From Marsupella aquatica (lineage: Eukaryota > Plantae > Marchantiophyta): 64,000 nt of DNA. Numbering within the stretch: the stretch's first letter is position 1; each line of letters opens with the position of its first letter. A program made the translations under genes and the position numbers. Shown one piece after another: positions 1-33,559 of this stretch. A model generated the notes under the pieces. It was not told the origin of the DNA and did not search any database. It saw nothing but the letters and a program-made list of their open reading frames with translations. The stretch is from the NCBI GenBank assembly GCA_973895155.1, contig OZ316895.1, positions 742,435 through 806,434 of the forward strand, written 5' to 3'.

Positions 1-302
1 CTAGATAAGTACCCGATTCAGATCGAAAATTACAAGTCTCTTCTGAACCGGTGACTTCTTTGCCGATGGATTAGGCACCATCTGTACCTGTGATTTTTGT
101 GCCGCAGGGTTTGGAGAACGTACTAGAACGGTCTATTTGTTTCCTGCCTCCGGATGATCACCGGACTTCCGGACTGGTGCCTTCGATACTCGATTAGGGG
201 GTTTCGGGATAGGCTTCTGTAAAACATTAAGAAATGAAAATAAGTTTATAACGCGAATGGTCGCGTGACTACAAAGAGAGACACTAAAATGAAGTGTATT
301 AC

Positions 303-1090
303 CTGTACAAGACGGTCGTTCAGTGCTGGAATTCCGCCGGAAATGTCAATCATAGCAGCACGGATCCCGGTAACTAGGTTACTTGCGGACGTCAGCTTGC
401 GGAAGTCCATGTCAAATAACGACAAGACTATCTCCCTACGGAATTTCTCAATTTGATCCGCGGCAAAATTAATTCTGTTTCCTTGACACAAGCACTTGGC
501 GTATCTCAAGATAAACACACCACAACTGTGGCCGTCACTCTGGTGAGGAATATCATTCCGATATATCCGTTCCCAACCTGAGAGATCCAAGTTGACACCA
601 GTTCTCTAGCCAATTTCGTCGGCGTAGTACTTCCCAACAATATCTAGCACCCCAGGATTTTGTCGATTATGAACTAGAGAATCTAGGTACTCCAGCCATT
701 TCTCCTTCGGATACAAGACTACCAATGACCAATGTTCTTTCACAGCATTGTGTACTGGAAAGACCAGTTTGTCGTATTCACTGATTTTTAGCGGAAACTC
801 CTTTGTCCAAGCTGCTCTCTCCTCGTCGAAAATGGTAGGATCCATGGAGAGAAGCTCAAAATGGTGTGTTGGAAGAATTTGACAAGGTCTGAATTTCCAA
901 CTCTATCGAGAATCAGTTCGAGAAAACTCAAATAAGCGTTAATTATATCATCGGTGAGCAACTCGCGCGGTCTCAAACACATCATATGTTTCCTCTTGAT
1001 CGAGTGTTGTAAGAACTTGGTCAATAGCTCTTCCATATCCTTAGAAGGATCAAGGCATTGATCTATTCGACTAGCCAAATTTTCAAAAAA
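303..1090 (-). pseudogene. Ulp1/peptidase C48 SUMO-protease domain exon
   Basis: Contains LTDDIINAYL, FPVHNAVKEHWSLVV (catalytic His), YLDSL (Asp) and PHQSDGHSCGVF (oxyanion Gln, catalytic Cys). Split by one frameshift and one TAG. Confidence 0.9.
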
Positions 1091-1139
1091 CTGCAAAAAA
1101 CAGAGATTTCAGTACGCCTTCAAATAACGTACTGAGGTT

Positions 1140-4100
1140 TGTGATGCCTAGACAGGAATCACTCGGCCGGTTAAGTGGGTAAAGCAGGAAGGCACCCTAG
1201 GAACACCTTAGTATAGTGACAAAACAAGGAAAATATAAACAATTAGGGGCAACCATGGAACCCGGGCAGAGGCCGGAGGTAAGGCTAAGGGTGAAAACCC
1301 GATTAGGGTTAGGGCGCGTTAAGCGTCGGCGGCTAGGAAGGATCAACGGGAAGAAGGACCGGCAGAGGAGAGGGGTAAGGAGCGCTTGCAGGAGATGGTG
1401 GCTCATTTGCGAGCACGAACTAGGCAGACGACTACGGGAGGCCAACTACTGTCAGCTGCTTAGGCAAGCACTCGGGGAGAGAGTAGATACCGACGATCGA
1501 CCTAAGGAGGGTATGAGCAACGTCAATCAAGCGGCACATTTCTGGGGATGCCTGTTCGAACGGGCAACTGAGTACATCAAGACTTACGAGGACGAGGAGT
1601 CAGAAAGGGCAGCTCGAGAACGGCAGGAGCTCGCTCGATTGTGGGAGCTGCAGAAGACGGCTTTCTTAGGAGGCGAACTCATCAAGGACGAGTTCCTGTG
1701 GATGCCTACTTCCAATCAACTCGACGATCTTCTGTTTTGCAAAGACAGCGTCGTCGGCATCCGAGAGGCCATCAAGAACTGCAACGACATACACTGGGAA
1801 TTAAAGGGTAGCACGGAAAGGTGGACCCAGGCAACGGTGCTAGGAGAAACCTCCACGGCAGCAGAGATGAAGAGGAAGGGAGCCATCAACGATGAAGCCA
1901 CCCCGGCAAAAAGAACGAGGTCGGCGGCACCAAAGAAGCCAGCCGAGCAGCAGAGCAGGAGGCAGGGAGAAGCCGAAGAGGAGGAGGTCGATCCCATCAA
2001 GGCCATTCCAACCAGGGATGACACCTGGAAGGGCTGGGCGGCAACCCTACCGGTGGAGGTGCAACTACATTTTGCACGGGAGGAGGATGCATGCTTTACG
2101 GCCATGCAGACCAAGAAGTACCAAGGCTTCATGGCCGGATCCGGCTTGGAGGCCTTTGTAAGATTACCATGGCTGAAGCCGGAGGTACCGGAGTCAGACC
2201 TATTAGAATTCGTGGGGTCATGGGAACCCGAGACCAATTGCACGAGGATATATGGGAGGGATTTCTATCTTACTCCCAAGGTAATTGCCGAAGTGTTTGG
2301 CTTGCCGATAGGCAATAAGACCAAAGTTGATACCAGGAAGACCTTGCCTGACAAGGAGTTCCGGTCGTTCCCCGGGCCATCAACGAAGAATGGCTTCTTC
2401 CGGAACACCTGCACCAACCCGCACATAGGAGAGATGATCGACTTCTTGCGGGTGACCATGCATTGTAACTTGCCGAGGGCAGAGATCGGCAAGGCACAGG
2501 TCTATCTGGCAGAAAGGCCAGACCCAAGCTGGGACTACAACGGGTACCTCCTCAACCAATTGAAGAAGATCTTAAAGGAGGAGCAGCAGGTAATCGGCAT
2601 GGGGAGCGTGTCGCGGCTTGGCTATCACATGCCGCTGTTGTGCCGGTATGCCAGAGGTCAGACTTTTGCCCCGGTACTTCCCCTGCAGGTAAGGGCACCC
2701 GAGGAAGCTCCAACGCCGAGGCCGTTGGCTGAGAAGCCTCCACCACCTGTTAGTCCTACGATCGAGCAGGTGTTTAGGCCCAGGAAGGAAGACTTGTCGA
2801 TGCAGCAACCAGACATGCAGAGTCTGCTGAAACTACTGGAGAAAGAAAAGAAATTGGCATCGGCAACAACAACGGCAACGGCAACAATGCAGGACACTAC
2901 TACAGAGGTAGGCCTACACCGGCTCACAAGAGAAAACCCCTTTGCTGGAAACAAGGAGAGAATCAGGCCGGAATCCAAGCCAGGTGTTCGAATGTACATG
3001 GGAACCTCAAGCTCCGAATCTGAGGCAGAATTGCCTGAAGCTCCTACCGACGAAGAGGAGAGGGAGAAGCCGGACGTCCAAGAAGTAGAGGAGGCAGTGG
3101 AGGACTGCAGCCATGATAATTCCGGCTATGGGTCGGACCATCACGTTCCAGGAGTAAGGACCTATGGCCGGTTTGTCCCCACACTTCCAAGGGTAGTGCG
3201 AGGGGACCCCAACCAGCAGAGTAGCCCTGAGTCTCCCCCACCAGATGTTGCTCCCCCGAGCTTCGACGACATAAAACAGACGGTGCAGGAATTTCAGGAG
3301 CGAATCAAGCAGGAGGAAGAGGTCGCCCTGGCTAAGGAAAAGGATTTACCAGGAGGAGATTGGCCGGAGGACATCAGGCGGCTAGCCGAAAAAGGAAGCA
3401 AACCTCTAGCCACGATTGAAGAGATCCGCAGGACGGCTTGGGAGCAGAGGCCACGATGGGCGATGCCGATCACTTCTACTTACTCCACCTACGCTAAGAA
3501 TAGAGCCATGGAGTATGGTGAGATGTGTGGGGAACTTGAGCTCGGCATCTTTGGAGAGGAGTTGGAGATAGGACCCTTTTTCCATAGGGAGCAGTTGGAG
3601 AAGCACCAATTAGAAGAAGCGGTGGCTTTAGAGAGAAGCAAGAAGGACGAGGTCATTCGGCGGCTTAGGAGGATGGAAGCCGAGATTGAAGATCTAAGGG
3701 CGGCCAAGAAAGCCCAAGATGAACTGCGGATTAAACGACATGAGCTGAACATCATGCAGGGGCAGTTGGACACCGCGCAGGCTGATAATCAGAATATCAA
3801 GGATAAACTGACTCAGACGCAGGAAGAGTTGGCCGACACGATCAAAGAGAGGGAGAAGTGGAAGCAAGAGCTGAAGAATACAGAGGAGGCCCACATAACA
3901 GCCAACAGCCGGGCCATGGCGGAGACCCAAAGAAAGGAATGGGCGTTGAAAGGGGAGCTCGAGAAAATCCGCGGAGCCCTTGAGCAGAAGGAGGTCGAGT
4001 TAGGGAAATCCTATCAAGGGATTATGGCGCTGCAGCAGGAGCTTGCGTCCCTGACGGCCAGCTTCAAGGCCGACCTAAGGGAGAAGGACGAGATGCTCGA

Positions 4101-5790
4101 ACAGACTTACGCCAAGATGAACCAGATGGAGTCTGTCATCATTGTAGAGCTCGACAAGGAGCTAAGAGCAACCCAGGAGGAGAGGGCTACCTTGAAGAAG
4201 GAATTGGAGGAAGCCCACAGGGAGCAGGAGGAGGCCAAAAACGAGCTGGAGGGGGCACATAAGGACCTGGATGAAACCCAAGAGGAGTTGGAGGAAATCA
4301 CGAGGAAGATGGAGAACCTACAGCGGCGGGCCGACAACCAAACAGAGCGGCTGAAGAAACAAGCCGCAGTATTTAAATGCTTAGCTGCAGCAGGTCCATC
4401 TCCCGTTGGGACAAACCAGTTACCAGGGGTGGTAATTGCCGAAGGACAAGCCGCGCCAACTGCACCAGTGCCGGAAGTAAGTGGGAAGGGGAAGGGACCA
4501 GCTGCCGAGCCACCAACGAAGAAGAAGCGGAAACCTTCAGGGTCAAGGAGTAATACGACTTCACAGGCCGTGGTGATCAAGGAGGTAGACCCAGCACCGA
4601 CCCCAGACAGGGTCACGGCTAAGGATCCAACTACCCTAGGGGAAGGGGAGGCCGAAGCCGAGGGAGTGGCTGAAGCCGAAGCCGTGGGAGTGGCTGAGGC
4701 CGAAGCCATGGGTATTGCCGAGGCCGGTGTCGAGGCTGAAGCCGAAGGTGGACCCAGTCAGGCCGATGGAGAGTTGACTCAGTCAAGGGCAGGTAATCTG
4801 TCAGTAGGCGGGCCAACGGCAGTGGCTGAGGAGGAAGTGTTGGGGGCGTCCATTGAGGATCCACCACCGGTGTCGTGACGGTGCAAGGGCGCCGTTCCTT
4901 TTAGGGAGGGCGGACGTGGAGGGAGGAGGCGTGAGTGGGCAGGGCGGGCGCGGATCTCCACGTTTAGGATTAGGATCAGAACCAGGAGCGGCCCTGACAC
5001 TTAGCTTAGTGGGATTGCGGTCCCACTGGTAGGAGCAACACTTGTGCTCCTGCCTTGCTGTACATAGGTAGATTCGGGCAAGTAGATGACTGTCAGGTAG
5101 ATTAGGCTTACGATGCAAAGAATGGCGGATCCACTACCAGGATAAGTACCTGGGCAGCGGGGAGCTCAGGGCCTCTTCTTTAGCAAGTTTTTAGTTTGCA
5201 CCAGCCGGGCTGGGATCAAGTAGTACGAGAAGCTCTCGGTTAGTCATACAGTGACCCTTGTGTATATTCATGTTTCCTCATGCCTAAGAGCTGAATAGAG
5301 TTGGCCTCACGGCTTAGTTCGCAGAACTTGTGTATGAGATGTACTGTTTGTATGGCAAGTGCATGGTATGACTCAGTCAGAATGAGTCATTTTGCTATTT
5401 GTGTGTCGCATTAACTTGTGTGAAGAGTGCCCACATCAACAGAAGGAAGGAAAGTAAGCAAGGGAGTGAGAGTTGGATGTGTCGAGCTGAGAGAGGTCTT
5501 AGCGGCTTAACCAAGCCTATTGGGGATCATTCCGGCGGCGGAATCCAAACATACCTAACAAGAAGACAGGGGAAGACAGGGGAAGGCCTATATTAGGCCG
5601 GCTACGTATCTCATGACCCGATGAAGGATCTGTCCAGTATATGTGTGTAAAATGTTAATAGTAGTAGCAGAAGGTTAGCAGCGTCCCATGCCGCTAAGCC
5701 GCGGAAACGGCCTCGCCAAGCACGAAACCTGCGGGAATCGGCTTGAGCTGGGGGGTTTCTTGGGTTTAGGGAGCCATGGGACGCACCACA
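1140..5790 (+). mobile_element. Solo-LTR-like element family A, copy 1 (4651 bp), inside an intron of the multidomain gene
   Basis: Starts TGTGATGC and ends GCACCACA (short imperfect inverted ends). 5-bp TSD AGGTT at 1135-1139 and 5791-5795. No gag/pol and no internal direct repeats. A second copy lies at 14285-18943. Confidence 0.9.
1513..4878 (+). CDS. LTR-borne protein (~1121 aa from ATG 1513; frame open from 1216) with a plant-retrotransposon accessory-ORF-like domain and a long coiled coil
   Basis: Intact ORF. The segment GLEAFVRLPW..LLEFVGSW..IYGRDFYLTPKVIAEVFGLP (~2128-2312) resembles plant mobile domain/Transposase_32/Athila-ORF1-like motifs. Heptad-rich region at ~3590-4370. TATAAA at 1234-1239. 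Confidence 0.75.
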   Translation: MSNVNQAAHFWGCLFERATEYIKTYEDEESERAARERQELARLWELQKTAFLGGELIKDEFLWMPTSNQLDDLLFCKDSVVGIREAIKNCNDIHWELKGSTERWTQATVLGETSTAAEMKRKGAINDEATPAKRTRSAAPKKPAEQQSRRQGEAEEEEVDPIKAIPTRDDTWKGWAATLPVEVQLHFAREEDACFTAMQTKKYQGFMAGSGLEAFVRLPWLKPEVPESDLLEFVGSWEPETNCTRIYGRDFYLTPKVIAEVFGLPIGNKTKVDTRKTLPDKEFRSFPGPSTKNGFFRNTCTNPHIGEMIDFLRVTMHCNLPRAEIGKAQVYLAERPDPSWDYNGYLLNQLKKILKEEQQVIGMGSVSRLGYHMPLLCRYARGQTFAPVLPLQVRAPEEAPTPRPLAEKPPPPVSPTIEQVFRPRKEDLSMQQPDMQSLLKLLEKEKKLASATTTATATMQDTTTEVGLHRLTRENPFAGNKERIRPESKPGVRMYMGTSSSESEAELPEAPTDEEEREKPDVQEVEEAVEDCSHDNSGYGSDHHVPGVRTYGRFVPTLPRVVRGDPNQQSSPESPPPDVAPPSFDDIKQTVQEFQERIKQEEEVALAKEKDLPGGDWPEDIRRLAEKGSKPLATIEEIRRTAWEQRPRWAMPITSTYSTYAKNRAMEYGEMCGELELGIFGEELEIGPFFHREQLEKHQLEEAVALERSKKDEVIRRLRRMEAEIEDLRAAKKAQDELRIKRHELNIMQGQLDTAQADNQNIKDKLTQTQEELADTIKEREKWKQELKNTEEAHITANSRAMAETQRKEWALKGELEKIRGALEQKEVELGKSYQGIMALQQELASLTASFKADLREKDEMLEQTYAKMNQMESVIIVELDKELRATQEERATLKKELEEAHREQEEAKNELEGAHKDLDETQEELEEITRKMENLQRRADNQTERLKKQAAVFKCLAAAGPSPVGTNQLPGVVIAEGQAAPTAPVPEVSGKGKGPAAEPPTKKKRKPSGSRSNTTSQAVVIKEVDPAPTPDRVTAKDPTTLGEGEAEAEGVAEAEAVGVAEAEAMGIAEAGVEAEAEGGPSQADGELTQSRAGNLSVGGPTAVAEEEVLGASIEDPPPVS

Positions 5791-6779
5791 AGGTTGTAGC
5801 CTAAGGGTTGTAGCCTCAGAAAATAGAAACAATAACAGATCAATAATAAAATAATGACGTCTATAATAGAAACTTTAAGCTTATAGCTTGCGAATGACCT
5901 TTGGATTGGGTGGATCCGGCCTTTTCACAGCTGATCTCTTGGGTGCCTCAATCGCAACAACATCCTTCAGCCCTCCTCGAGACCGCAGTGATCGCTCCAC
6001 CGGACCAGTTTGCGAAGGTTGGAGCGATGAGGCGGGAAGACCTTCAAATGGTTGTGGCATTTGATTCAAATATTCCACAATCTAGGAATCCGATTCCAAA
6101 ATATCCGGTGCCACAATTTCTACGCGAGTCACCTCTGCAATATATCGGGGTCGAGACCACGAACCCGGTCGCGTCAAGTCAGCTGTTAGTCTCTTAACGA
6201 CTTGAGCCAAGTCTGGTGCCAAAAACATTCCCAGGTCTTGCACTCGATTCTTGGAAAAGCGGACATTATTGATGATTGTCTCCATTCTGGATGCAGTGGC
6301 AGTCTTCTCCTCGGTAATCAAAAGACCCTTCCAATATTGCAAAGCAAGGACTGCCTGGACTCGGAGCTGCTCCGGTGAATATTTATTCCAATCATCCAAC
6401 GAGACCGTACTTAAGGGTGGATCGTTAAATTCAAACTCCGGGCGAAGAAAATAGTCTAATATTTTCTTCTTAACTGCAACTGAGGGTGAAGAAGGCTTTT
6501 TCAAATTCAGCCTTATTTTCGGTAGATGTTGTGCCTCAGGAATAAGCGAAAGATCCTTGGCCCTCTCGGCCTCCTTCCTCACTGCCTCCAGTCTTGCGGC
6601 TTCTTCTCTCTCCAGTCTTGCGGAATCGACCTTTTCCGCCTCCAACTTCTCCGCCTCCATCCTCTCCGGTCTTGCGGTCTCGTCCACCATCCTCTCGGCC
6701 AGCAGCCTCTCAGCCGCCACACTCTCCGCCTTGGCCCTATTTTCCTCTGTCACTAAAAGGACTCTCACAGCCTCCGTGT

Positions 6780-7395
6780 TCTCGGCCTCCGCTTTCTCCG
6801 CCTGGGCTTTCTCAGCCTGGGCTTTCTCAGCCTGGGCTTTCTCAGCCTCCGCTTTCTCCGCCTGGGCTTTCTCAGCCTCCGCTTTCTCCGCCTGGGCTTT
6901 CTTAGCCTGGGCATTCTCAGCCTGGGCTTTCTCAGCCTCCGCTTTCTCCGCCTGGGCTTTCTCGGCATCCGCTTTCTCCACTTGGGCTTTCTCAGCCTCC
7001 GCTTTCTCCGCCTGGGCTTTCTTAGCCTGGGCTTTCTCAGCCTGGGCTTTCTCAGCCTGGGCTTTCTCGGCATCCGCTTTCTCCGCCTGGGCTTTCTCGG
7101 CATCCGCTTTCTCCGCCTCGGCTTTCTCCTTCTTCTTCGCGGCAGTTGCTTTTCTAGCTGCTGCCTTTTTCTTCTTAACCTCCTTCTTTTGAAGCTCCTC
7201 TTGCCGGGCCGCCTCTTGTCGGGATGCCTCCTCCTGCCGGGCCGCCTCCTTCTTTTGAAGCTCCTCTTGCCGGGCCGCCTCCTGCCGGGCCGCCTCCTTC
7301 TTTTGAAGCTCCTCTTGCCGGGCCGCCTCCTGCCGGGCCTCCTCCTGCCGGGCCGCCTCCTCTCTGGCCTCCTCCTGCCGGGCCGCCTCCTCTCG
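6780..7395 (-). repeat. Coding minisatellites: 15-bp AEKAQ/AEKAE units (~6780-7130) and 18-bp EEAARQ-type units (~7190-7395)
   Basis: Tandem GCCTGGGCTTTCTCA and CCTCCTGCCGGGCCG units within ORF 6082-7572. Confidence 0.95.
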
Positions 7396-10300
7396 GTCCA
7401 CCTCATGTCGAGGCTCCTGTGTGGCCTCTTCATCAGAGTCCTCAGCATCCTCGGAACCCTCCATCTCCTCATCCTCTTCATCAGCGTCCTCAGCGTCCTT
7501 CATCTCCTCTCCGTCACTCTCTTCATCTCCTCTATTGTCAGAATCTCCGACATCGTTCTGCGTATCGGTCATCCACTTTGGATCTTGGTCATTGACATCC
7601 CCATCCGCGTCACCTTCCGCGTCACCTTCCCCTCACCATCCGCATCACCATTGCTCCCTGCATCCTCAACATTGAAGCTGCAGTCGACTTGATCTGAATA
7701 AAATCAAATCATTTGATAAGAATGACTCACGCGCATATTCGCGTGAAAAGAAATGTTATGAATGTCCACGCGCATGTTCGCGTGACGCAATAAAAAGTAA
7801 GAGGTTTCAAAAGTAACTTACCTTGGATTGGCCCACTAGGGTACTCCGTTGGTCGAATATACAATCAATCGGAATCTTCAGAGAGTGCATACTCTTGCAA
7901 TAATTGATTACAAATATTATCAGGGATATGTTGTTCGTGGAGGACATCCAAAACATCAGCCCTGAGAGCAGTTACGGATGGACGGTACTTCATTAATTTA
8001 TCTATACATTTTTCTATACTAGCCCGTACTGGGTCAATCAATGACAGCGTTGTATCAATTGTCACCGTGGTGTGTTGCAAGAAACAAGACAACTCCCTAT
8101 GCGTTGCCACAGGGCAGTAATATTTTACATTGGATCCAACATCCTGTAAAAAAAACCGAAATTAGTTCACAATATTAATTGAGAATATAATAATCTAAAT
8201 AATCTTAAAATCGAAACCCCAAAATATAAATCTCAAAACTTACCATTAAGCACTGGATCAAGTTCGTTCCCTCACCGAAGCATATAGCCCATTCCCCACA
8301 TTGGACGAATTGACTAACAATACTTTCAAAGAATGGAAGTATCTTTTCTGGGGAAGGTGTCGTGAACTCGCCGCTCTCTTCAAAATTGGCTATCTTCTCA
8401 ATCTGATATTTGGAGACCAATTGGAACTCGAGGGCTTGTGGATCGCCCATTGTGCTGAAGGCCAAGCTGTGAAAAGCGTAGGTTACAATAAGCTTCTTCT
8501 CCTTCGGCCGCTTCTGAATATAATGGCTATCGACAGCAACGTAGTGTGTGTACTTCCCTAATTCCCGTTTGATTAAGTAAGACTCAACGGGAGAGGCTAC
8601 AATAATAACCACATGGTGTGGTTTTGCCCCTATCTCGCTAGTAGCACGAAATAACCCCTCATAGAATGAGCAATTTGGCGGACGCAAATCTCCCATTGAT
8701 GAGGGATCAAAATAAATCAAGCTCGCAAGGTTCTTGTCTTCACGTATGATACAGTCTGCAAACCCAACATTTTGTATATCCTGTAGGGATTGCAATTTCA
8801 GCCTCTCACCGATCGGCCGCACTAGTTGGTTTCCTTGACTATCAACTGATTTCTGTATTCCTTCCACCAACCTGTAGAATATAGGGTCGATCTCCTTCAA
8901 CAAATTATCATTACTAATATTTACATTTAAGCACTTCTTCAGATAACCACTCAACGCATCTCTCAACTGCTTCAGCACCATCTTGTCGAGCTTAAAGCGA
9001 TCAATCATTCCTTTGACCCGCAATTTCCGCGCTGAATCTGTCAGACTTTTCAGCTTCGTCCGGGTGGATGTTTCCCCGTTGAGTTTACTCAATAATAAAA
9101 TCTCAAACTCAACTTTCGTCTTCTTCTTTATACAGAATTGCTCCAAACTCATGCTGGTCGTTGACAACACTGGAGCCTCAGAGGACTTCCTTGCCTTCCC
9201 AGATTTCACTTTGATGTTTCGGTTTTTGAGTATAGACAGTCTTCCGCTCAACATATATTCCGCTGCCTTTCGAAGAACCGAGTCTGAGCACCCTTGACAA
9301 GAACGGAATGTCTTCTTTAGAAGATGATAAGCACACGGATTATCCGCAATTTTGACGGCGTCCCTCTGTAAAATTCCGTTGTAAATTACAAGCTCTCCTG
9401 TCCTTGATAGTTCGTAGACCTCCATCCACTTCTTGAATGTTTTGTCCTCCATTGTAAAGAGAAACAGAGCCAATTCTCCAAATTTCATCATTTCGTTCTT
9501 CCCCATTTGAGCCCATGGGCAAACAAAACTCGGAGCTCTCATAAATACCTGAAAAACAATGGAAACATGACAATTCTAAGCTTGACGCGACCGTTCGTGT
9601 GACAAAAGTTTATACGATAATGTGATCGAAGAGGGTTATTTATATACCTTCCAATTTGAATGACGATAATGTGATCTAGGCCGCCCAAATGAGTTCCAGA
9701 TATTACGACACTGTCGTACAATGGTGAGAAACTGTCCTTCTTCCATTGATGTTTGATGACAGTGGTTCAGAGCTTTCGATAATCCCATCAAATGAACATT
9801 ATTGTCGTTGTTGAGCGTTACCCAAAACATTACAGCTTCTACAGTACCGCAAGCGTCTCGTACAACTTGGCTGACTTTGTCGTCCTCTCTTAGCAATTTG
9901 TATGCCATTATTGTGTGCTGGCCTCCGAGTATCCAGAAATGACTGGTCATAATGTCCTCCTCCTTTGGCGATGAATCGTAGGGTGTCCCATTGTAGTCGG
10001 GATCTCTGTCGGCCTCCAACTGAACCCACTTCACAGGGACTAAAAAGTAGCATCGCTTCTCAAACTTTATAGCCGAATGAGAGAGGAGTGAATTCTTTAG
10101 CCTATCTGTGTAATCCTGATTCCACTCTCGGCACTTGATGTGGTCCTGTGCAAGATGACAACGTGATGTCTCAACAAAAAATGACTTGTTGTTAAATATA
10201 TTCACAGCACTATATTCTTTGAGGAAAGAATCGAACATAGCCCCGACATTCGCTGAGGTAATTACTTTCGGAAGATTCTCCGCCAAGTATACTTCAACCT

Positions 10301-10961
10301 TGCTCACTGGCGGGGCCTTTCCCAAGCGAAATCCCTGGTTGAAAGGAACTCTCTGGAACTCAAGTACGTCAATAATGTATTGACAAATCAAATCTCCCGT
10401 TGATGCCTCTGGATCGGAAGGATATCCCACACTAGTAACCTTTTCCAAGGCGTGCCTTGCACCTAGAAGATCATTGATTCTGGGCTGATTGAAGGTTACA
10501 TATTGCGTTCGATCTAAACAAATGCTTATTTTGTCTTCCTGCTGGTCGTCGCTGACTAGCAGAACCAATCCCTCTGTACACTCTTTAACTTTCATGTTCT
10601 TCTCAAAGAAACACCCGAGAATTTTTGATCTCTCCAAAACTGTAGCTTTATCATTTCTTGCCACCACAAGACGGACAGCCCCATTGCGAACGACTATTCC
10701 AAAATTGGATATCTCAGTCGATTCAAAGAGATGGATACTCTTTGTCTCCGTTGTTCTCTCTCTGATTGACTTTCCTCGATATGCAAGTATGGATGTCTCC
10801 GCGGGAGTCATTTTTGTCTTGGTTTTCTTTCGAGAAGCAGCTTTAGACGAGTCTCTTTTCCGCTTTGAGGTTCCGGCAGGATCCATTCTGAAACAGACAA
10901 ATATTGAAAGTTAAATGTTTATTATAAAATACTAACACGCGCATGGTCGCGTCATGCCGAA

Positions 10962-11492
10962 TTACATTTTAGGAACATTTATCCTGACCCAATCTTCTCG
11001 CTCATCTTTATCTAACCAAAACCAAAGGTTCCTAAACGTGTCAAGTTCAGATCCTTCAAATCCACCCAAAATGTCCAGTGGCGGGAGAGTTCTAATGGAT
11101 TCTGTAAATCTTAATGCTACACTCTGTGAAGTCAAATGCCTTCGAAGCGATTCATATCCTGGTCTATCAGTGAAGTCGTAAGCTACCAAGGTGACCGTCG
11201 CCCAAGTACTACTATAAGTAACTATGTGGCACCACTTCTTACTGACTGTTCGAATGGCGATCAAGTCCATGACCCGATTTTTAATCGCAGTATCCGACAA
11301 ATTCCCAAGATAGTGGAAAAACTCTTTGACTAATGGCCAAATATATTTCTCGACAATATCGTCCGAAAGACCGGATATCAGGTCTTCAGCTTGACTCCAT
11401 ATCATGTTTCGGTTCATAACCTTTGCATGTGCAATGCGCTCCATCATCATTTGACGATGAGATTTTCGATTCATGTCAAAGGACTGCAGCAT
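10962..11492 (-). CDS. F-box-like protein, paralog 3 (intact, ~170-176 aa)
   Basis: LISGLSDDIVEKYIWPLV...IAIRTVSKKWCHIV...W matches the F-box pattern LPGLPDD(I/L)...LRxVSKxW. Confidence 0.65.
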   Translation of the reverse strand: MLQSFDMNRKSHRQMMMERIAHAKVMNRNMIWSQAEDLISGLSDDIVEKYIWPLVKEFFHYLGNLSDTAIKNRVMDLIAIRTVSKKWCHIVTYSSTWATVTLVAYDFTDRPGYESLRRHLTSQSVALRFTESIRTLPPLDILGGFEGSELDTFRNLWFWLDKDEREDWVRINVPKM

Positions 11493-11526
11493 AATATGGA
11501 AAAGATTAAGAACAAGAACCTATCCA

Positions 11527-12093
11527 TTAAGAACTGGGACCACCGAGATTCTGAGAAAATCTACCAAACCTTTCGATTAGGACATCTCGTTCTTCCTCAT
11601 CTAAATTGTTATATTTGTTCGTAAACAATGCGATTTTGTCAGAAGTAGTAGTCCCAAGAACAGATATTTTTGGAAGCATAGAAATATCCTGTCGAATAAC
11701 TCGACAGACTGAGTCAAACTCCAACTCGTCAGTTTTGGGTATGTCGTAAAGAGCATCATTTGCGACATCGACAATCCGGTTTGCTTGTTTGAGGATAGCC
11801 CATAACCTTGTATTTGTAACTAAAAAGTTCCACTTCTTGCTACAAGCTCCAAGCCGAATAAGGTCTCGGACCCTATCGATAACCAAATCGTTATCGAGGT
11901 GTCGATATCCACGCAATCTTTCAATTGAAATAAAGTGTTCGTAGAGTATTGGCCAAATGTTTGAAATGACCAAAACATCTGGTATTCCTCCAATGAGACT
12001 AGAGGAGGTTTCATCCAGCGTATCCCATATTGTTTTCTATTTCTTTTCATGAGATGAAAGGAAATCTCGAGCCTCATTCAAAAGTTGGCTCAT
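11527..12093 (-). pseudogene. F-box-like protein, paralog 2 (one in-frame TAG near the N-terminus)
   Basis: ATG at 12093 gives MSQLLNEARDFLSSHEKK*KTIWDTLDETSSSLIGGIPDVLVISNIWPIL...IRLGACSKKWNFLV, in frame with ORF 11527-11973. Confidence 0.65.
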
Positions 12094-12227
12094 CCTGCTT
12101 TTATCATATCACAAAACATTGTTAGAAGACATACGACGCGCTTGGTCACGTAAGTTAACTAGAATTCCTTAAAAGCGTAGATGTCACCCTCAAGGTATCC
12201 AACTTCGTGGCATCTGACTATAAATTT

Positions 12228-12739
12228 CTATTTTTCAAGAGGGTGAAGAGCATCGTAAGTCTTCGTGAAGAGTTTCCTAAGATCTCTGGATATTGACCCC
12301 ATGAATTTAATTCTTGGGTATTTCTGGAAGAAACTTTGAACTGTCGATGAGAGAGACTCATTTCCGATCGGTTTAGTAGGATTTCCTGGGAAAGCCAAAT
12401 CTAATAAACTCAACTTGATTACACCCAGAAGATAAGTATTCCCAACAAGGTGGCGCCATCTACGACACACCGAAGATAGTCCTACAAACTCATCCAATTC
12501 CTTTATTGAGAAATTTCCTGCATTAGCCGAGGAATTAAAGTCTCCTGGATCCGAGGCCATATCAATTCCACGACAATGAAATCTGGAAGTCCAGGTAGTA
12601 GTGTTTCAACAAATATAGAATATCCCGCCAGTAGACCATCTTGGCTTCTGTCCAAAACGTCAAATATTGGGCATAGATATCTGAAGCTCTCCAGACCAGG
12701 TTCGCCCATGACTCTTTTCAGCCAAATGATATATCCCAA
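12228..12739 (-). pseudogene. F-box-like protein, paralog 1 (frameshifted)
   Basis: LLPGLPDFIVVELIWPRI in ORF 12503-12739 continues after a frameshift into GLSSVCRRWRHLVGNTYL in ORF 12228-12560. Confidence 0.65.
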
Positions 12740-12849
12740 AGATTATTTTCACGCGACTGGTTGCGTCTACAAATCAGAATGCATAAACAATTCTTTGAGA
12801 GACTGATTTTTTCGGGTCACAACGTGACAAATCATAAATGTTGCTTCGT

Positions 12850-13600
12850 CCTCTAACAGAACCAGTCAATGAGAGAGCAACCTCAGATGCAACTGGTCGC
12901 GTCAACTGAACCTAAACAACTATATCCACTGAACCTTCCTTGTGGAGATTTGGATATGGTACGCGCTCAGTAAATCTATCCAGTTTCCTTCTCACACGCG
13001 ACTGGTCGCGTCAAATGGTCCTAAAAGGAACCTTACCTCCTCTAACAGAACCAATCAATGAGAGATCTACGTCAGACGCGACTAGTCACGTCAACTGGTC
13101 CTAAAAGGAACCTTACCTCCTCTAACAGAACCAGTCAATGAGAGAGCAACCTCAGACGCGACTGGTCGCGTCAACTGAACCTAAACAACTATATCCATTG
13201 AACCTTCCTTGTGGAGATTTGGATATAGTACGTGCTCAGTAAATCTATCCAGTTTCCTTCTCACACGTGACTGGTCGCGTCAACTGGTCCTAAAAGGAAC
13301 CTTACCTCCTCTAACAGAACCAATCAATGAGAGATCTACGTCAGACGCAACTAGTCACGTCAACTGGTCCTAAAAGGAACCTTACCTCCTCTAACAGAAC
13401 CAGTCAATGAGAGAGCTACCTCAGACGCGACTGGTCGCGTCAACTAAACCTAAACAACTATATCCATTGAACCTTCCTTGTGGAGATTTGGATATGGTAC
13501 GCGCTCAGTAAATCTATCCAGTTTCCTTCTCACACGCGACTGGTCACGTCAACTGGTCCTAAAAGGAACCTCACAGTATTTTCACGCGACTGGTCACGTC
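12850..13600. repeat. Tandem array with a 269-bp higher-order unit (80+80+109 bp), each subunit carrying an ACGCGACTGGTCGCGT palindrome
   Basis: Palindromes start at 12887, 12996, 13076, 13156, 13265, 13345, 13425, 13534 and 13584. The period of 269 is seen in 12996/13265/13534. Confidence 0.95.
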
Positions 13601-20849: not shown

Positions 20850-21800
20850 TGCTATTGTTTATTGTAGTCGACGGCCTAGCAAAACGAAACGTAATCGAGG
20901 TCCATTTTTCAGATCTTCCTGATCTCAACTTGTTAGTAGGATGACCTGTTTTTTGGTTACACATGTAGTTCATCACGCGCACAGTCGCGTGAACCAATTT
21001 ATCTCGTGTCTTTTGATATTGTTTATTGTAGTCGACAGCCTAGCGAATTGGCCAGCAATCTATTTTAAAACCAACGTCTTCATTTCATCACGTGCACGGT
21101 CGCGTTAATGTTTTAGAGGTCAGCAAAAGCTCTGCACTCTCAGACGTAATCGCCCTTTATTTCTCATATCTTCCTGATCTCAACTTGTTAGTAGGATGAC
21201 CTGTTTTTTGGTTACACATGTAGTTTATCACGCGCACAGTCGCGTGAACCAATTTATCTCGTGTCTTTTGATATTGTTTATTGTAGTTGAAAGCCTAGCG
21301 AATTGGCCAGAAATCTATTTTGAAACCGAGTTCTGATTCACGCGACCGGTCGTGTTAATGTTTTAGAGGTCAGCGAAAGCTCTGCACTCTTAGACGTAAT
21401 CGCCCTTTATTTCTCAGATCTTTCTGATCTCAACTTGTTAGTAGGATGACCTATTTTTTGGGGTACACATGTAGTTCATCACGCGCACAGTCGCGTGAAC
21501 CAATTTATCTTGATATTGTTTATTGTAGTCGACTGCCTAGCAAATTGGCCAGAAATATATTTTAAAACCGAGGTCTTCATTTCATCACGCGCCCGGTCGC
21601 GTTAATGTTTTAGAGGTCAGCGAAAGCTCTGCACTCTTAGACGTAATCGCCCTTTATTTCTCAGATCTGCCTGATCTCAACTTGTTAGTAGGATGACCTG
21701 TTTTTGGTTACACATGTAGTTCATCAAGCGCACAGTCGCGTGAACCAATTTATCTCAGGTCTTTTTGATATTGTTTATTGTAGTCGGCAGCCTAGCGAAT
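20850..21800. repeat. Tandem array, ~250-bp unit x ~3.7, with two ACGCG-N6-CGCGT palindromes per unit
   Basis: Repeated GATCTCAACTTGTTAGTAGGATGACC blocks. Palindromes at 20975, 21090, 21230, 21340, 21481, 21587 and 21726. Confidence 0.93.
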
Positions 21801-22005
21801 TGTCAGTCAGAGGAATCTTCTTTTTTCCCTTGATTGCAAAAATGGTTACATCGATCCCGAAGGACTTCGGATGTGGAATCCATATCCACTAGCACTATCC
21901 AGGAATTTAAGCTACACAGTATCTATAACAAGTTCTAACTTGAACTACTCTTGAATCTGTAGTTCTAATCTTCGACTACTCAAAATATTGTTGACTTCGA
22001 TCGAG

Positions 22006-22548: not shown

Positions 22549-22864
22549 CGCCCTTCAAACAAGAGATGCTGACCGAGACTAAGAATTGGAAATGAGAGAG
22601 TTGATGTGCGAATAGATTATCCAATAGCCAGAAAGTGGAATGCGTGGGGGAATGAGCAATAGGGATCATCTCAATGCTTTATACTGTTTAGTCTCCACTA
22701 GTCATTGTACATAGTGGTTTCTAGAAGAGGGTGCGTGTTTGACTGGCGCGTATTAGAATTGGCGGGAAGTTCAGTTGTCCTCTAATTATGGCTTTAATTT
22801 CACGTTTGGCGACCGCCCCGAGAATACTGATTGCTAGTGAAGTACTGAGATTTCTTATGAAGGT

Positions 22865-23600
22865 CAGTAGTTACTGACTGTCCGGTGTCCACTCATTTTT
22901 CCTGAGTGGAGTTGAAATGATTGTTTGTAATCGATTGTAGTCGTTCTCATTCACTTGAAATGACTGACGAACCATGCATTATCTTTACCGGTATGTGTGA
23001 TGCCTTTAGATCCGTAATTGTATCTTCCTGTCTCGCGCGCAATTGTATCTTACTTATGAAGTACCAATTACGAGCTATAGTTTGGGCCTAGCCTTCTAGC
23101 TTCTACGTCGTAGACCCTGTACCCTCTGACTAAGGTCACGCAACATGCCTTTAGATCCGTAATTGTATCTTCCTGTCTCACGCGCAATCATATCTTACTT
23201 ATGAAGTACCAAGTATGAGCTAGAGTTTGGGCCTAGCCTTCTAGCTTCTACGTCGTAGACCCTGTTATCCCTACACCCTCTGACTAAGGTCACGCGACTA
23301 GTCGCGTGCAGGGCAGTGCATTGACTACATTCTGCCTACTTATTGACGGTTGTGACAGGACAATGCAGTTCACGAACGTTTTACTGGCGCTTATTAGCAC
23401 TACTATCCTCAATAGTTACTGACTGTCCACTCATTTGTTCTGAGTGGATGTGAAATGATTGATCGTAATCGATTGTGGTCATTCTCATTCATTTGATATG
23501 ACTGACGGACCATGCATAGTCTGTTGCCGGTATGTGTGGTACCTCTAGGGTCACGCGACCAGTCGCGTGTAGCGCAGTGCATTGACTACATTCTGCTTAT
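22865..23600. repeat. Nested duplications upstream of the transposase (~146-bp tandem pair at ~23000-23290; ~135-bp block at ~22868 and ~23413)
   Basis: ATGCCTTTAGATCCGTAATTGTATCTTCC occurs twice and TAGTTACTGACTGTCC...CCGGTATGTGTG occurs twice. Palindromes at 23292 and 23553. Confidence 0.85.
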
Positions 23601-25863
23601 TGACCGACGTGACAGGACAGTGCAGTGAAATTGACGGACGTGACAAGACTGTACGCTTACAGTGATATTCTCTGATGTGCAGGATCATAATTATTATGGT
23701 GACATCGACAGTCTGGATCAGGGAAGGCGGACAAGTTATTATAGGCATACGTGAGAAACAGGTTGGAAAAGGTCGCGTGATAAGTCTTGATCCTTCCAGG
23801 GTTTGTCACAATGTTCCTCTTGGGGCGGACAGAGTTCTTCTTCTATTGGAGGAAGTTTTTGACGAGACCATTCTATGCGAAGATGGCAAACTTTTGAAGG
23901 ACATGATTGGGGGTTACCTTGTATGGGAAAGGAATCAGCTTTTTCGAGCTCCCATGGAATCGGAGGATGTGTTTGGCACTGTTGGTGATGATCAAGATCC
24001 AGTCAATCAAAATTCTGATGGGAACAACCATAATGAGAGTCGGTCTGGTGTGGAAGTAGTTTTACCAAAGGCCTTGTGGATGGGCATGCCTGTAAAGGTG
24101 GTGGATGAGAACAAGTTGATTTTTGCAGTGGCAACTATACATGTTCTAGATCCTATAGTGAAGCTTGGGGATGTCACCCTTGGGAATACACATGTGGGAA
24201 TTCTGATCAACGATTTTGTCGAGGGAGCTACCATAGATCATCTGAAGCATAGAGATTGCTTAAAAGCTTGGTCGATGGACCAACTCATTGCCAAGGATGG
24301 CAACTTGTTGTCTTTCCACAACATCAGGCAAGCTATGGGAGGGAACACATCTCCAACAAGTGGCAAGCGGTCCTACGTCCATAAAAGTAGGAAAAGAAAG
24401 AGTCCATCTTCCCAGACATCTAGAAGAGACACATCTTTGGCACGTCAAGATGTGTTGTTGATAAACACTAAGGACTGTTGTAGTGAACATTGTTGCCAAT
24501 ATTTGGACCGCAACTTGGCTATGGCAATTAGGCAAAAGTGGTGGTCAAAATCTTTTGCGGAGCGCAAGGAGGAGGTAATCAAGGCTATTAAAAATACAAT
24601 ACACTTGGGTACTAGAGAAAGGATTCTAGCAGTGGAGGGCAAAGTATTGTGCTTGGAGGCATGGAGAATCATTCATTCAAGAGGAAAGACTCAATTTTAT
24701 GCCTTGAAGAAGACTGTGATGGCTGGAATGAACATAGGTACCCATGGTAATGTTGGAAAAAGGCGTATGTCCGAGAAAGTATCTCTAGCATTCATGTCAA
24801 TGAAAGAGATTATTGAGGAGGCAGCTGATCATCATCCAGCCAAGTTGAGAACCATGGCAGATAATACAAGGATGGTTTTGAGGGAATTGCCAACAAATCT
24901 TACTTGGGAGAATATTAGAAACAGGGTTAATGTTGTCAACCAGGAGGCTTGTCTTCCTCCAATTTCCCAACCCACCTTGAGTCATCTACATCAGATTTAT
25001 TTTAGGGAGTTCTCACGTCACAAAAAGGGCAACAACTTTTCAAAGTGTACAACTTGTAGTGAGTTGCTTCAACAGAAAGCAAACCTTACAGGAGCTAAGG
25101 AAGAGTTAGAGGGCCTAAGGCGTGACGAGGAGGAACATCACCAAGACCACACACAGCAAAGAATGTGCTATCATGCCTGGAGATATGAGTCCATCCATCG
25201 TCCAAAGGAAGTGTTATGCCTTATTCATGATAAGATGGATCATTCAAAGACAGCTCTCCCAAGAATGCCCTTCAATCCTAAGCATGTGGATGGTGCCCAA
25301 AAGTTCCCAATTACTGTTGTCACGTCATCGGCTGCGGCCTTAACTCAGACTTCAGCTTAGACGGGCACATCCCTCGTAAATCTGAGGGTTCGGGCAGGAA
25401 GGGAAGCACATAATGCACCTTATTCTCGTAAACTAGCGCTAAGTGCGCATACTGCTAAATACGGACACCTCCTAGGTATGGTTTGTGTTCCGCCGCCGGA
25501 ATGTACCTTAGTCGATAGCAGGATCGACCCCGGCTTAAGGGCTTCTAAGCCTTCGTGCTGTCCGCCTTTGATCCAGATTCGATGATACAGGTCCTCAACC
25601 CGTGCTCGCAACCACTTACCCGCAGGCTGCACCCTGTGCACGTCTCGGGTAGTGCGTTCGGCCTGGCGCTGCCACCCATATACGAGAAACCCACACACAT
25701 ACACGCGCACATGCATACAATCTCGATTTACATGAAGGAAAATGATGGGAAAGGATTTTACTACAAAGGGAACATATGCGTACACTTAGTTGACCCGACA
25801 GCCCCGGAATGAACAGGTTCAAGGCCGAGGGTGCACACTACAACGGAGCGCGGCTTCGCACTC

Positions 25864-26206
25864 ATCACCCTATTCATTAAAAGTGTATTTTATTTTGTTC
25901 ACTTTTAGGCCTCGAAATGTACACTTGTTGGTCTCTAAATGTACACTTTTTAACCCCAAAAGGTATACTATAGTACAATACTCTACACCTAAACAGTCAA
26001 TTGTAAACTTGAGGGAGAAAAAATAATCTTTACTAGAAGGAGTCTCATCCTAGTTCATTTATAAAAGATGAACATGGTGGTATGTCTGATGGCCATCACC
26101 TTTATTTCTTGCTCAAATGTACACTTTTAGAAAGCCAAATGTACACTTTCTATTGCCCAAATGTTCATAAATTGAATAATAATTCACTTTTAATGAATAG
26201 ATTGAT
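25864..26206. mobile_element. MITE nested in the family B solo LTR
   Basis: TIRs ATCACCCTATTCATTAAAAGTG / CACTTTTAATGAATAGATTGAT. ACTC is duplicated at 25860-25863 and 26207-26210. AT-rich interior with AAATGTACAC repeats. Confidence 0.8.
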
Positions 26207-26675
26207 ACTCGCCCGACGAGCTTAGTCCTACCCCCTCCCCTTGGTACTCTTTCATTCCCAGAGGTCGGGACTCCCCGCACATACCGCGGACACCCAACTC
26301 TGCAACTAAAAACCCCCTGCCTCTACCGAGGGGTGCACTAAATACTAAGGGCTGAGGGACGGGGTGTCCTCTCGCCGAAGATTCACTGACTAAGGTCCTA
26401 ACTAAGCTGACAGTCAGGCCGGAAACGGCTGTGTCTTATTAGAAGATCCTAATCTACGCAGGCTGGATAGCATGGCAGCGATGTTGTACCTAAGACAGGT
26501 GCCTGTCCCAAGAGCCTGACTAAGCTAGTCCTAATCCTAATCTATTCCTACTCCGCCGCTAATGCCTGGCACGCTTGCCAGAGCCGTCTAAATGGGAGCG
26601 GCCATCCCGCTGCCTTCGAAGCTTGTCATTGTCCGCCTTGAGGAGCTGGACCTGGTCCAGTAGAGATTCGTTCTC

Positions 26676-27602
26676 TCACCTCGCCGCGTCCGTCTCCTTT
26701 GTTGCCTCCTGACAAGCCTCCTCCAACTGTTGGGCGTCACTTGTCAGTTTACCCGCCAGCTGGTCCTGCTTCTCGGCCTCGGTTTGGAGCCGCGCCACCT
26801 CGGCCTGCAACATGGCTATCTCCGCCGTGTCCCGTTGGGCCCGTTCCTCGGCCTCCTCCAGGTCTTTCTGCCAGGTGACAGTTTGATTCTTCAAACTGTC
26901 AATCTGGTTCCGGAGTTGTGTAATCTCGGCCTCGTTCCCAGCTTTGGCCTGTTCGGCTAGGGCGGTAAGAGCGTGCGCCTTTGCTAACAACTCATCGGCG
27001 GCTGCAACCTTGGGTCGTAGTTTCCAAAGCTCAGCCTCTTGAGCCGCAACTTCGTTCTTTAGGTACACGGACTCCACCCGGTACCGCTCTATCCTCTGAA
27101 GGGCCTCTGACTGGGCCCGACCTGCCTTTACTACGGCAACCAACTCCTGATTGAAGAAACAGGCTACCTTCCGGGCCATGAACTCCCCGGTATCCCGGGC
27201 AATTTGATGAGAGAAATCTCCCAGAAGCCCGTTCAGAAATGTACCCAGTACGAAGAGTTCCGGGTGGTCCAGGTTGTGCCTGTCCGGAGTTGGGCACGGG
27301 CAGACGTCAACACGCGCGGGGGCCGGGGCAGTGACGTCCAACCCTGGGGACGTAACGTTGGAAGGGGCTGGAGCGTCCTCCTGTAGCAATGTCTGGTTCT
27401 CCGGAATAGCCACCGGTGGGTCTTTGGGAGAACCGGGCTCGGGTAAGACCTCCGCCGTACCGACTTCTGTACTTAGCCCGGCCTGTTGGGTCGCATCAAC
27501 GGTTGCAACACCCGACCCATCCGGTACCTCCTCGGTTACGACTACAGCTACTTGTGGAGGTGGGGTGGGTGAAGCTGGCGTGTGGACTGATGGACTGGTG
27601 CA
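26676..27602 (-). pseudogene. Pro/Ala-rich then coiled-coil ORF remnant inside the family B element
   Basis: Frame is open from ~27602 to 26676 with no upstream ATG. Heptad-like C-terminal half (EAEITQLRNQIDSLKNQ...). Confidence 0.6.
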
Positions 27603-29841: not shown

Positions 29842-30420
29842 AAGTTAGTTAGTTGGTTAGTTTATTTAAGATATAATATTAGTTAGTGGGGCCTTAGTTT
29901 GGTTATATTAAGGCATGATATTATTGACATTCAAATGAATGTCCAGTAGACATTGTAATATACAACAATCCTATTAATAAATAATAATTATAGTTACACC
30001 CTCAAGTGAACTCAACTTTCAATGATTTCTGATTTTATATGGTTCCATGCCTGATTGAGTCAAAGCAATAGAAACTAACTAATTAAAGGGTGATACTATA
30101 ATTGTAGGTCACGCACCCTGGTGCGTGTCAATCTTTTTTGTATTCAACCCTATAGTAATTAAATAGACAAGTTAGTTAGTTGGTTAGTTTATTTAAGATA
30201 TAATATTAGTTAGTGGGCCCTTAGTTTGGTGATATTAAGGCATGATATTATTGACATTCAAATGAATGTCCAGTAGACATTGTAATATACAACAATCCTA
30301 TTAATTGTTGTAAAGAAACTAATTAATTAAAGGGTGGTACTTACTATGATTGTAGGTCACGCACCCTGGTGCGTGTCAATCTTTTTTGTCTTCAACCCTA
30401 TAATAATTAAATAGACAATT
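29842..30420. repeat. Tandem duplication downstream of the transposase carrying the palindrome variant ACGCA-N6-TGCGT
   Basis: AAGTTAGTTAGTTGGTTAGTTTATTTAAG... at ~29842 and ~30169. CACGCACCCTGGTGCGTG at 30110 and 30358. Confidence 0.85.
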
Positions 30421-33460: not shown

Positions 33461-33559
33461 TGATTCATTCTATTCTCACACTTCGCATATTTTCTTGCCT
33501 TTGATACATTTTCCTCACTTTGACATCTTTTACTCTCTTTTTACATTTTCTCACCTTGA

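Follow-up and report, generated by a model that had tools for sequence, protein, structure and literature searches.

The 64,000-nt window analysed here, from the liverwort Marsupella aquatica (GenBank assembly GCA_973895155.1, contig OZ316895.1, positions 742,435 to 806,434 of the forward strand), contains a giant multicopy Sola-type cut-and-paste DNA transposon. The element carries a minus-strand gene, termed here the ParB-Ulp1 gene, whose spliced translation likely joins a ParB fold and a Ulp1 protease in one chain. A 20-bp palindrome recurs throughout the element. The palindrome and a contrast in CpG retention within the element are new here; transposons bearing ParB-like genes are a recently noticed kind. 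The explanation that we favour, to which we give an even chance, is that the ParB-Ulp1 protein binds its own palindrome and keeps the element unsilenced, as a self-recognition system resembling ParB/parS in bacteria and VANC in other plant transposons.

Six minus-strand exons, starting at 10886 and reaching the window edge, make up the ParB-Ulp1 gene.

9648..10886, minus strand: exon 1 (aa 1–413), basic N terminus, PH-like beta domain, ParB/Srx-fold domain
8244..9548, minus strand: exon 2 (aa 414–848), helical region and degenerate beta-class N4/N6 methyltransferase (MTase)-like region
7822..8143, minus strand: exon 3, in which the MTase-like region ends; stop at 7867–7865
5899..7693, minus strand: exon 4, acidic stretch, EEAARQ and EKAQA peptide repeats, linker; frameshift at ~7625, stop at 6084–6082
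303..1090, minus strand: exon 5, Ulp1/C48 protease; frameshift at ~850, stop at 608–606
1..216, minus strand, running on past the window edge: exon 6, Pro/Lys linker, ending at the window edge in KRLVIFDLNRVLI

All five introns are bounded by GT..AG, have an AT content of 63–78% and are consistent in phase, and the predicted product is about 1890 aa or longer. A first-pass annotation of the window had proposed five phase-consistent GT–AG introns at these places, and re-reading of the exon boundaries on the window sequence agrees with it; the peptide that it quoted and the motif ILGGQHTIMA are also present in the exon 1 translation. It had, in addition, listed 5899/1090 among its junctions, across 4.8 kb. 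The splice stands, but the intron is really one of ~150 nt, split by a 4.65-kb nested insertion. A natural 4.8-kb intron is ruled out by the TG..CA ends of this insertion, its 5-bp duplication and the empty site (1139/5814), across which contigs join in two of four runs (X2 and X5).

This copy of the gene is dead. It contains stops at 7867–7865, 6084–6082, 608–606, 135–133 and 3–1 (at the window edge), and frameshifts near 7625 and near 850. The stop at 608–606 is a sense codon in high-depth contigs of three of the four public runs, and that at 135–133 in all four. The remaining stops and frameshifts have no counterpart among the differences listed (40 of 878) or the indels listed (12 of 42).

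Two domains can be placed in exon 1.

nt 10781–10325 (aa ~36–188), minus strand: PH-like beta domain (VIA-align, AlphaFold2 model)
nt 10196–9749 (aa ~231–380), minus strand: ParB/Srx-fold domain, GGQHT motif near 9920 (AlphaFold2, Foldseek, VIA-align)

The AlphaFold2 model of exon 1, built on 33 sequences, has a mean predicted local distance difference test score (pLDDT) of 83.4 and a predicted template modelling score of 0.51. The 20 Foldseek matches listed among the first 24 ranks all fall on structures of ParB, Noc, PadC, sulfiredoxin or Atu1540 (probability 0.66–1.00, best E 8e-3). In a VIA-align comparison with 48,161 chains, the top seven matches all belong to the ParB/Srx superfamily and lie on aa ~231–380 (PadC, KorB, a serine kinase, Atu1540, a ParB-N domain, sulfiredoxin and SbnI; Z 5.4–7.5). 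PadC aligns with Z 7.5 and a root mean square deviation of 3.0 over 98 residues, and KorB with Z 7.2 and a deviation of 3.9 over 114. A language-model feature search (Atlas) returned DUF3723 (0.95) and ParB_N (0.91) for the same exon, and sequence searches of Pfam, PHROGs and PDB gave no ParB or MTase match. The ParB/Srx fold had been predicted at aa ~240–390 in the first-pass annotation, and predicted structure now supports it at aa ~231–380. Nearly all other VIA-align rows are PH, PTB or FERM domains on aa 36–188 (Z 4.0–5.2); the PH-like domain ahead of the ParB domain was absent from that annotation. ParB/Srx proteins typically have a conserved N-terminal Arg and a nucleotide motif made up of a strand followed by G-x-H-R, ending in a functional Arg. 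The family studied here has [IV][LIV][GD]GQH[TS] at this position, i.e. GGQHT or DGQHS, and Arg253 is conserved in the exon 1 homologues. With Thr or Ser in place of the motif Arg, the nucleotide-dependent clamp or nuclease suggested in the first-pass annotation is a weak reading.

The Ulp1/C48 domain that had been claimed for exon 5 is confirmed. PF02902 scores above its cut-off of 20.7 bits on two pieces (22.1 and 28.1 bits), and the best structure-database matches are to SENP1, SENP2 and Ulp1 (E 1.8e-7 to 4.5e-3). The motifs EHW, YLDS and PHQSDGHSCG align with SENP2 and SENP1, and the catalytic triad and oxyanion Gln are in place (His at ~734, Asp at ~683, Gln and Cys at ~545–525). The gene does not end with the protease, which that annotation had placed near the C terminus: the reading frame goes on beyond it to the window edge, and the gene is therefore incomplete within the window. 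The protein may extend into a further domain beyond this edge. The edge sequence KRLVIFDLNRVLI (window 4–45, minus strand) recalls what we take to be motif I of HAD/NIF (FCP1-like) phosphatases, and has no Pfam match.

Between the ParB and Ulp1 domains, the MTase-like region is marked by short motifs in exon 2.

DPSS at 8708 and FGEGT at ~8280, minus strand: MTase-like motifs, exon 2

In the Atlas search, N6_N4_Mtase (PF01555) appears in all ten rows shown for this region (0.83–0.85). Alignment by hhalign of a profile of 2–3 sequences with 16–21 beta-class MTases is collinear, pairing DPSS with DPPY, TPSPEK with HPTQKP and ICFGEGT with DPFMGSGT, at a probability of 0.2–0.4. The MTase call of the first-pass annotation is a collinear, sub-threshold lead with degenerate motifs. 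The beta-class catalytic motif (D/N/S)PP(Y/F) and the FxGxG motif for S-adenosylmethionine (SAM) were not found in the family members seen (three and two, respectively). The position of the catalytic DPPY is occupied by DPSS, DCSV or DSTL in three of three members, and that of the SAM loop DPFxGSG by ICFGEG or VCFSEG (FGEGT, FSEGK) in two of two; homologues of exon 2 include P0001 and P0002. As the catalytic motif is altered in all three members, the domain, if it is an MTase at all, is probably inactive. The losses are common to the family and are therefore not decay of this copy. The helical region of exon 2 is a candidate DNA-binding part.

With exon 1 as query, a full HMMER search gave 32 proteins at E≤0.001, of which one is spurious (P0022, a 3247-aa repeat protein with a secretion tail, which was left out of the exon 1 alignment). 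Ten homologues were checked by name and are mostly Logan singletons. The cargo homologues are down to 19–62% identity, and an intron position is common to them. In an alignment of 16 homologue fragments, 10 extend to junction 1, and all 10 have [WF]-x-V there and diverge thereafter, which is a sign of a shared phase-0 GT donor. Two proteins, P0027 and P0030, continue in-frame across junction 1 into exon 2 with 37–39% identity, and P0001 (52% identity) stops at junction 2, where it has the VSF read-through as well. Junctions 3–5 are spanned by none of the homologues found. The fusion to Ulp1, likely as it is, is drawn from phase and continuity across these junctions. Elsewhere, none of 2989 longer candidate proteins matched exon 1, no related loci were found in metagenome and viral contigs, and P0001 matched phage proteins only at E≥2.

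The 20-bp palindrome has the consensus TCACGCGACCGGTCGCGTGA. Its core, CACGCG-N6-CGCGTG at up to two mismatches, occurs at 23 sites in the 18.6 kb of the element; 15 Markov simulations gave 0.13 on average and never more than 1, and the other 33.4 kb of the window and the nested insertions tested have none. Only the 6-bp spacing of the half-sites is enriched; other spacings gave 0–6 matches, mostly overlapping ones. A position weight matrix trained on 16 element sites detects, at a threshold of ≥15 bits, 28 sites in 15 flank clusters, and none outside the element (45 kb, including three nested insertions), where the best score is 6.8. These sites lie as follows.

12750..13600: tandem-repeat array, 10 palindrome sites
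20889..21802: unrelated ~255-bp tandem array, 7 sites
22864..23626: repeats upstream of the transposase, 2 perfect-core sites (23291, 23552)
29842..30418: repeat downstream of the transposase, 2 weaker sites (30110, 30358)
250 (intron 5), 6158 (exon 4), 7728 and 7767 (intron 3), 9584 (intron 1): single sites in the ParB-Ulp1 gene
10936 (just upstream of the start of that gene), 12135 (between F-box-like open reading frames, ORFs): single sites upstream

Three of the five introns of the ParB-Ulp1 gene and four unrelated repeat arrays contain the palindrome, which is also found 50 nt ahead of the start of that gene and shortly before the transposase. Repeats hold 21 of the 28 sites, and 27 lie outside ORFs, though ORFs make up 59% of the element (p=4e-5, counting clusters). 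The element shares with VANC-type systems a motif of its own that lies in non-coding DNA and has been multiplied in tandem repeats. A scan of metagenomes for the palindrome gave 120 single-site matches, none of which resembles the element by blastn; they are taken as chance.

The motif-rich cargo and the motif-free transposase of the element also differ in synonymous CpGs, which the former has kept and the latter has lost. At codon boundaries, the ratio of NNC to NNT before G is 77:139 in the cargo ORFs and 14:102 in the transposase (p=2.6e-6), and a non-G control shows no difference between them (p=0.73). The observed/expected CpG ratio falls from ~0.9 to 0.2–0.5 (~0.3) immediately after the last strong palindrome site (23552). 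This pattern agrees with motif-rich DNA having long been protected from methylation. Neither the palindrome array nor the CpG contrast was part of the first-pass annotation.

That annotation placed the gene on a Sola-type transposon, and this is supported by a DUF7869 transposase on the opposite strand and by the multicopy state that the two share. The label 'Sola' (Sola1) for DUF7869 with three acidic motifs is our own assumption. The other parts of the element are as follows.

23666..29747, plus strand: Sola-type DDD/E transposase gene (PF25273 DUF7869, E 2e-37; DKMD, LDNC and GHTHEDVD motifs), broken by stops, CpG-depleted
10962..12742, minus strand: three tandem, mutually related cargo ORFs with weak F-box-like stretches, upstream of the ParB-Ulp1 gene on the same strand
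1139..5794: nested insertion in intron 4, 4.65 kb, TG..CA, LTR (long terminal repeat)-like, 5-bp target duplication, very high copy; outside the gene
25313–27988: nested insertion in the transposase, 2.68 kb, TG..CA, 5-bp duplication, 308-aa coiled-coil ORF

The ParB-Ulp1 gene and the transposase are divergently oriented. Without its nested insertions the element is longer than 18.6 kb, and its termini, at which Sola1 elements have terminal inverted repeats and a 4-bp target duplication, were not found: the left end lies beyond position 1, and no right end was identified in the window. In run X1, contig depth is 402–492 over the cargo and 698–729 over the transposase, while a flanking contig of 6.4 kb has 13.6; in run X2 it is 661–848 and 1260–1454, against 33–35 for the flank. 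Depth is uniformly high across the element, at 20–35 times the flank for the cargo and 40–50 times for the transposase in these two runs, although contig depth is a rough guide and not a copy number, and the runs may include the window's own source. The F-box-like ORFs have a depth similar to that of the ParB-Ulp1 gene; their Pfam matches are below cut-off (E 0.002–0.02), and they match one another by blastp at E 9e-13 to 0.02. They could add ubiquitin-ligase targeting to the element. The empty site of the 2.68-kb insertion (25312/27989) is present in three of four runs, and the transposase frame is open across it. The 4.65-kb unit has a second copy at 14285–18944, inverted, 94% identical and with its own duplication. 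An origin from an endogenous giant virus is ruled out by the spliceosomal introns, the depth shared with the transposase and the lack of viral genes among those seen.

Several systems described elsewhere resemble this one in part. In Ectocarpus, the 21.5-kb element Sola1-1_Ec32 carries, opposite its transposase, an accessory gene for a 1104-aa protein with ParB and N4/N6-MTase domains; the MTase is predicted to methylate, and self-binding and self-modification are proposed (PMC12477816). Both elements are giant transposons, of Sola1 type in Ectocarpus and probably here too, with an accessory gene on the opposite strand, in which a ParB-like domain precedes an N4/N6-MTase domain or, here, the MTase-like region. 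Compared by description only, they differ in that no protease is reported in the accessible text on the algal element, whereas the liverwort gene has a Ulp1 and a PH-like domain, a repeat linker, degenerate MTase motifs and a defined palindrome. The first-pass annotation had held the architecture to be undescribed on Sola elements. This does not stand, and its novelty was overrated, because a Sola1 element with ParB and MTase domains is already published and the capture of Ulp1 by transposons is common. In red algae, the accessory gene PAG3 of Plavaka elements encodes a ParB-like protein with a 2-oxoglutarate (2OG)-oxygenase and lies beside tandem inverted-repeat arrays; the protein is proposed to bind its own element (bioRxiv 10.1101/2025.02.11.637652). 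This system shares with the present element a transposon-borne ParB-like protein and adjacent inverted-repeat arrays. It differs in superfamily (EnSpm/Plavaka), in its 2OG-oxygenase effector, in having MTase-SET as a separate gene and, as far as the accessible text goes (no matches for SUMO or protease), in lacking Ulp1.

VANC motifs occur within introns, ahead of the transposase and inside tandem repeats (PMC5735166), KIU is a VANC protein with Ulp1 (PMC13317346), and proteins of both kinds bring about local loss of methylation (PMC5735166, PMC13317346). The likeness lies in a peptide-repeat accessory protein, in some cases with Ulp1, and a family-specific motif similarly distributed. From the parts of these papers that are open, however, VANC and KIU belong to the Mutator superfamily of eudicots, use asymmetric 8–9-bp motifs in one orientation and have no ParB fold. 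Exons 1–4 have no VANC-type match in Pfam, and the transposase is of DUF7869 and not of Mutator-like type. The likeness would thus be convergent, since the palindrome and ParB fold seen here are both lacking in VANC. Bacterial ParB, Noc, KorB and PadC and sulfiredoxin (PDB 7bm8, 7ol9, 8qa8, 6ryk and 3hy2) share the ParB/Srx fold with the exon 1 model. Against these, the liverwort protein has 6–16% identity, insertions in the fold, a replaced motif Arg, no helix-turn-helix (HTH) shown, no ParA and fused eukaryotic domains. Fungal DUF3723 (PF12520) provides the nearest named clusters by language-model features (0.95; 179–186 of 256 features shared); it has no hidden Markov model match, and the likeness is by features only. 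Fusions of ParB-HTH and MTase occur in chlorophytes and chytrids, with no mention of SUMO in the accessible text (PMC4738411). In the literature searched, ParB on Sola elements is reported only from Ectocarpus, and no ParB-Ulp1 fusion, land-plant case or defined site with a methylation footprint was found, though subscription papers and supplements may hold one.

The observations on which the favoured explanation draws are the gene structure, predicted fold, C48 residues, position opposite the transposase, palindrome distribution, CpG pattern and multicopy state. ParB, Noc and KorB are CTPase clamps that close and slide as dimers, and they recognize palindromic sites through an HTH domain that follows the ParB domain. 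By analogy, the ParB-Ulp1 protein would dimerize through its ParB domain and bind the palindrome as ParB and KorB bind parS and operators, with the helical part encoded by exon 2 as the likely contact. The bound protein may spread along the DNA. Its tethered Ulp1 domain might then strip SUMO from nearby silencing factors, or the bound protein might shield CpGs from host methylation, or both, much as VANC and the Ulp1-bearing KIU do for VANDAL elements. The MTase-like domain would be a non-catalytic relic or a DNA-contact module. We hold more tentatively, and think it may well prove wrong, a wider version in which eukaryotic cut-and-paste transposons have taken up a ParB/parS-type module as their platform for self-recognition. 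Its effector would be swapped by lineage: a DNA MTase in brown algae, a 2OG-oxygenase in red algae, and a SUMO protease, perhaps with a phosphatase, in land plants. Here the protein would load at the 20-bp palindrome, slide as a clamp and keep the element unmethylated, as a second, independently evolved plant anti-silencing system whose target site would thereby be known.

A number of results weigh against the favoured explanation. The join from the ParB-MTase part to Ulp1 crosses two stops and one frameshift, over junctions 3–5 that no homologue spans. For the exon 1 model, no Foldseek match reaches E≤0.001 (the best being 8e-3), and the VIA-align Z scores are below 8, a modest range that VIA-align rates as common; the ParB/Srx call is nevertheless made because two aligners and the language-model search agree. 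The motif Arg of the fold is replaced by Thr or Ser in the family (GQHT or GQHS). No DNA-binding domain was identified, the exon 2 structure model, from three sequences, having a pLDDT of 34. The hhalign match to MTases is no better than shuffled controls, its probability of 0.2–0.4 lying below the shuffled maxima. The weight matrix is partly circular, as its 16 training sites come from the element, and the sites in arrays are not independent. CpG retention is not unique to the cargo, since host ORFs and a nested-insertion ORF (0.75 each) and one Copia ORF (0.94) have it too, so that age or origin could explain the contrast. Transposase depth is ~1.6 times that of the cargo, and some copies may therefore lack the cargo.

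The palindrome may instead be bound by the Sola transposase, by another cargo protein or by a host transcription factor, with ParB-Ulp1 acting independently of sequence, perhaps as a general deSUMOylase that aids transposition. We consider this somewhat unlikely, and it is the alternative that we take most seriously. It would agree with the presence of Ulp1 domains on many transposons without ParB, with the lack of an identified DNA-binding domain in the ParB protein and with a preprint from 2026 (10.64898/2026.08.24.746577), which reports sequence-specific self-activation by a transposase. Each half-site is, we presume, a CGCG box of CAMTA type. However, the motif consists of two inverted halves at a strict spacing, with a palindromic spacer that is itself conserved, as would suit a dimeric protein dedicated to it. 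It also lies deep inside the element, within three of the five introns and just upstream of the very gene in question. In addition, ParB genes adjoin inverted-repeat arrays in an unrelated transposon superfamily. Alternatively, the protein may bind the palindromes for the mechanics of transposition, as a clamp that bridges or compacts the ~20-kb element, pairs its ends or chooses targets, while Ulp1 clears SUMOylated protein-DNA intermediates and the CpG contrast reflects younger or foreign cargo. The great length of the element, the spreading and bridging established for bacterial ParB and the other CpG-rich young elements in the window are in keeping with this. It is rated as unlikely. The divergence of the cargo homologues and their common intron position make the cargo module old, and the motif distribution mirrors the VANC pattern instead of clustering at the ends.

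We think it improbable that intact copies have an active MTase-like domain that marks the element as self by placing N4-methylcytosine or N6-methyladenine on or close to the palindrome, the role put forward for the Ectocarpus protein. That precedent, the uniform Atlas rows and the collinear motif order speak for it, whereas the altered DPPY in every member seen, the altered SAM loop and the sharing of these losses across the family speak against it. A chance patchwork of decayed genes, with the palindrome as a by-product of tandem duplication, is the least probable of these alternatives by a wide margin, and is already largely refuted. The five stops, two frameshifts and nested insertions of this copy, and the concentration of sites in repeats, would suit such a patchwork. 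Against it, the motif occurs in 15 unrelated flank contexts, including unique introns, and homologues share intron positions; the empty sites and uniform depth, moreover, indicate one repeated unit.

Other features of the window were recorded in passing. The two 4.65-kb TG..CA units (1139–5794 and 14285–18944) have no internal terminal repeats, like a solo LTR. The unit carries an ORF of 1225 aa that includes a coiled coil but matches no enzyme domain in Pfam, has a depth thousands of times that of the flank, and has a 31-bp stretch in common with the 2.68-kb unit. Between the arrays and the transposase, a 151-aa ORF (22006–22461, minus strand) has a Cys/His cluster (CxxC...CxxxHC), element-like depth and no Pfam match. 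Telomere-like AAACCCT/TTTAGGG repeats, partly inverted, lie at 28330–28420, inside an apparent intron of the transposase. Beyond the element, two Copia elements have opposite CpG histories: that at 30637–34578 is 5'-truncated and has kept its CpG (0.94), whereas that at ~42470–47680 has a codon-boundary CpG of 0/58. A short, very-high-copy repeat at 34578–34824, with a sharp left end and 39 contigs with unrelated flanks in run X1, is probably a miniature inverted-repeat transposable element. A host-like gene at 37198–39900 (minus strand) has a C-terminal part that, we assume, resembles plant extra-large G-protein or EDR4-type proteins; it has no Pfam match. The Copia elements, the TTTAGGG-type repeats near 28370 and this gene suit a host that is a land plant.

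The element provides a precise candidate site in 28 copies of the palindrome, a ParB domain modelled with confidence and a mutational footprint in keeping with CpGs being shielded from methylation, and through the palindrome the proposal of self-recognition becomes directly testable. If the proposal is true, ParB-bearing transposons would extend to land plants, and a job would be suggested for the SUMO proteases that are common on transposons. A programmable pair of protein and palindrome that keeps plant DNA unsilenced would also be useful for transgene expression.

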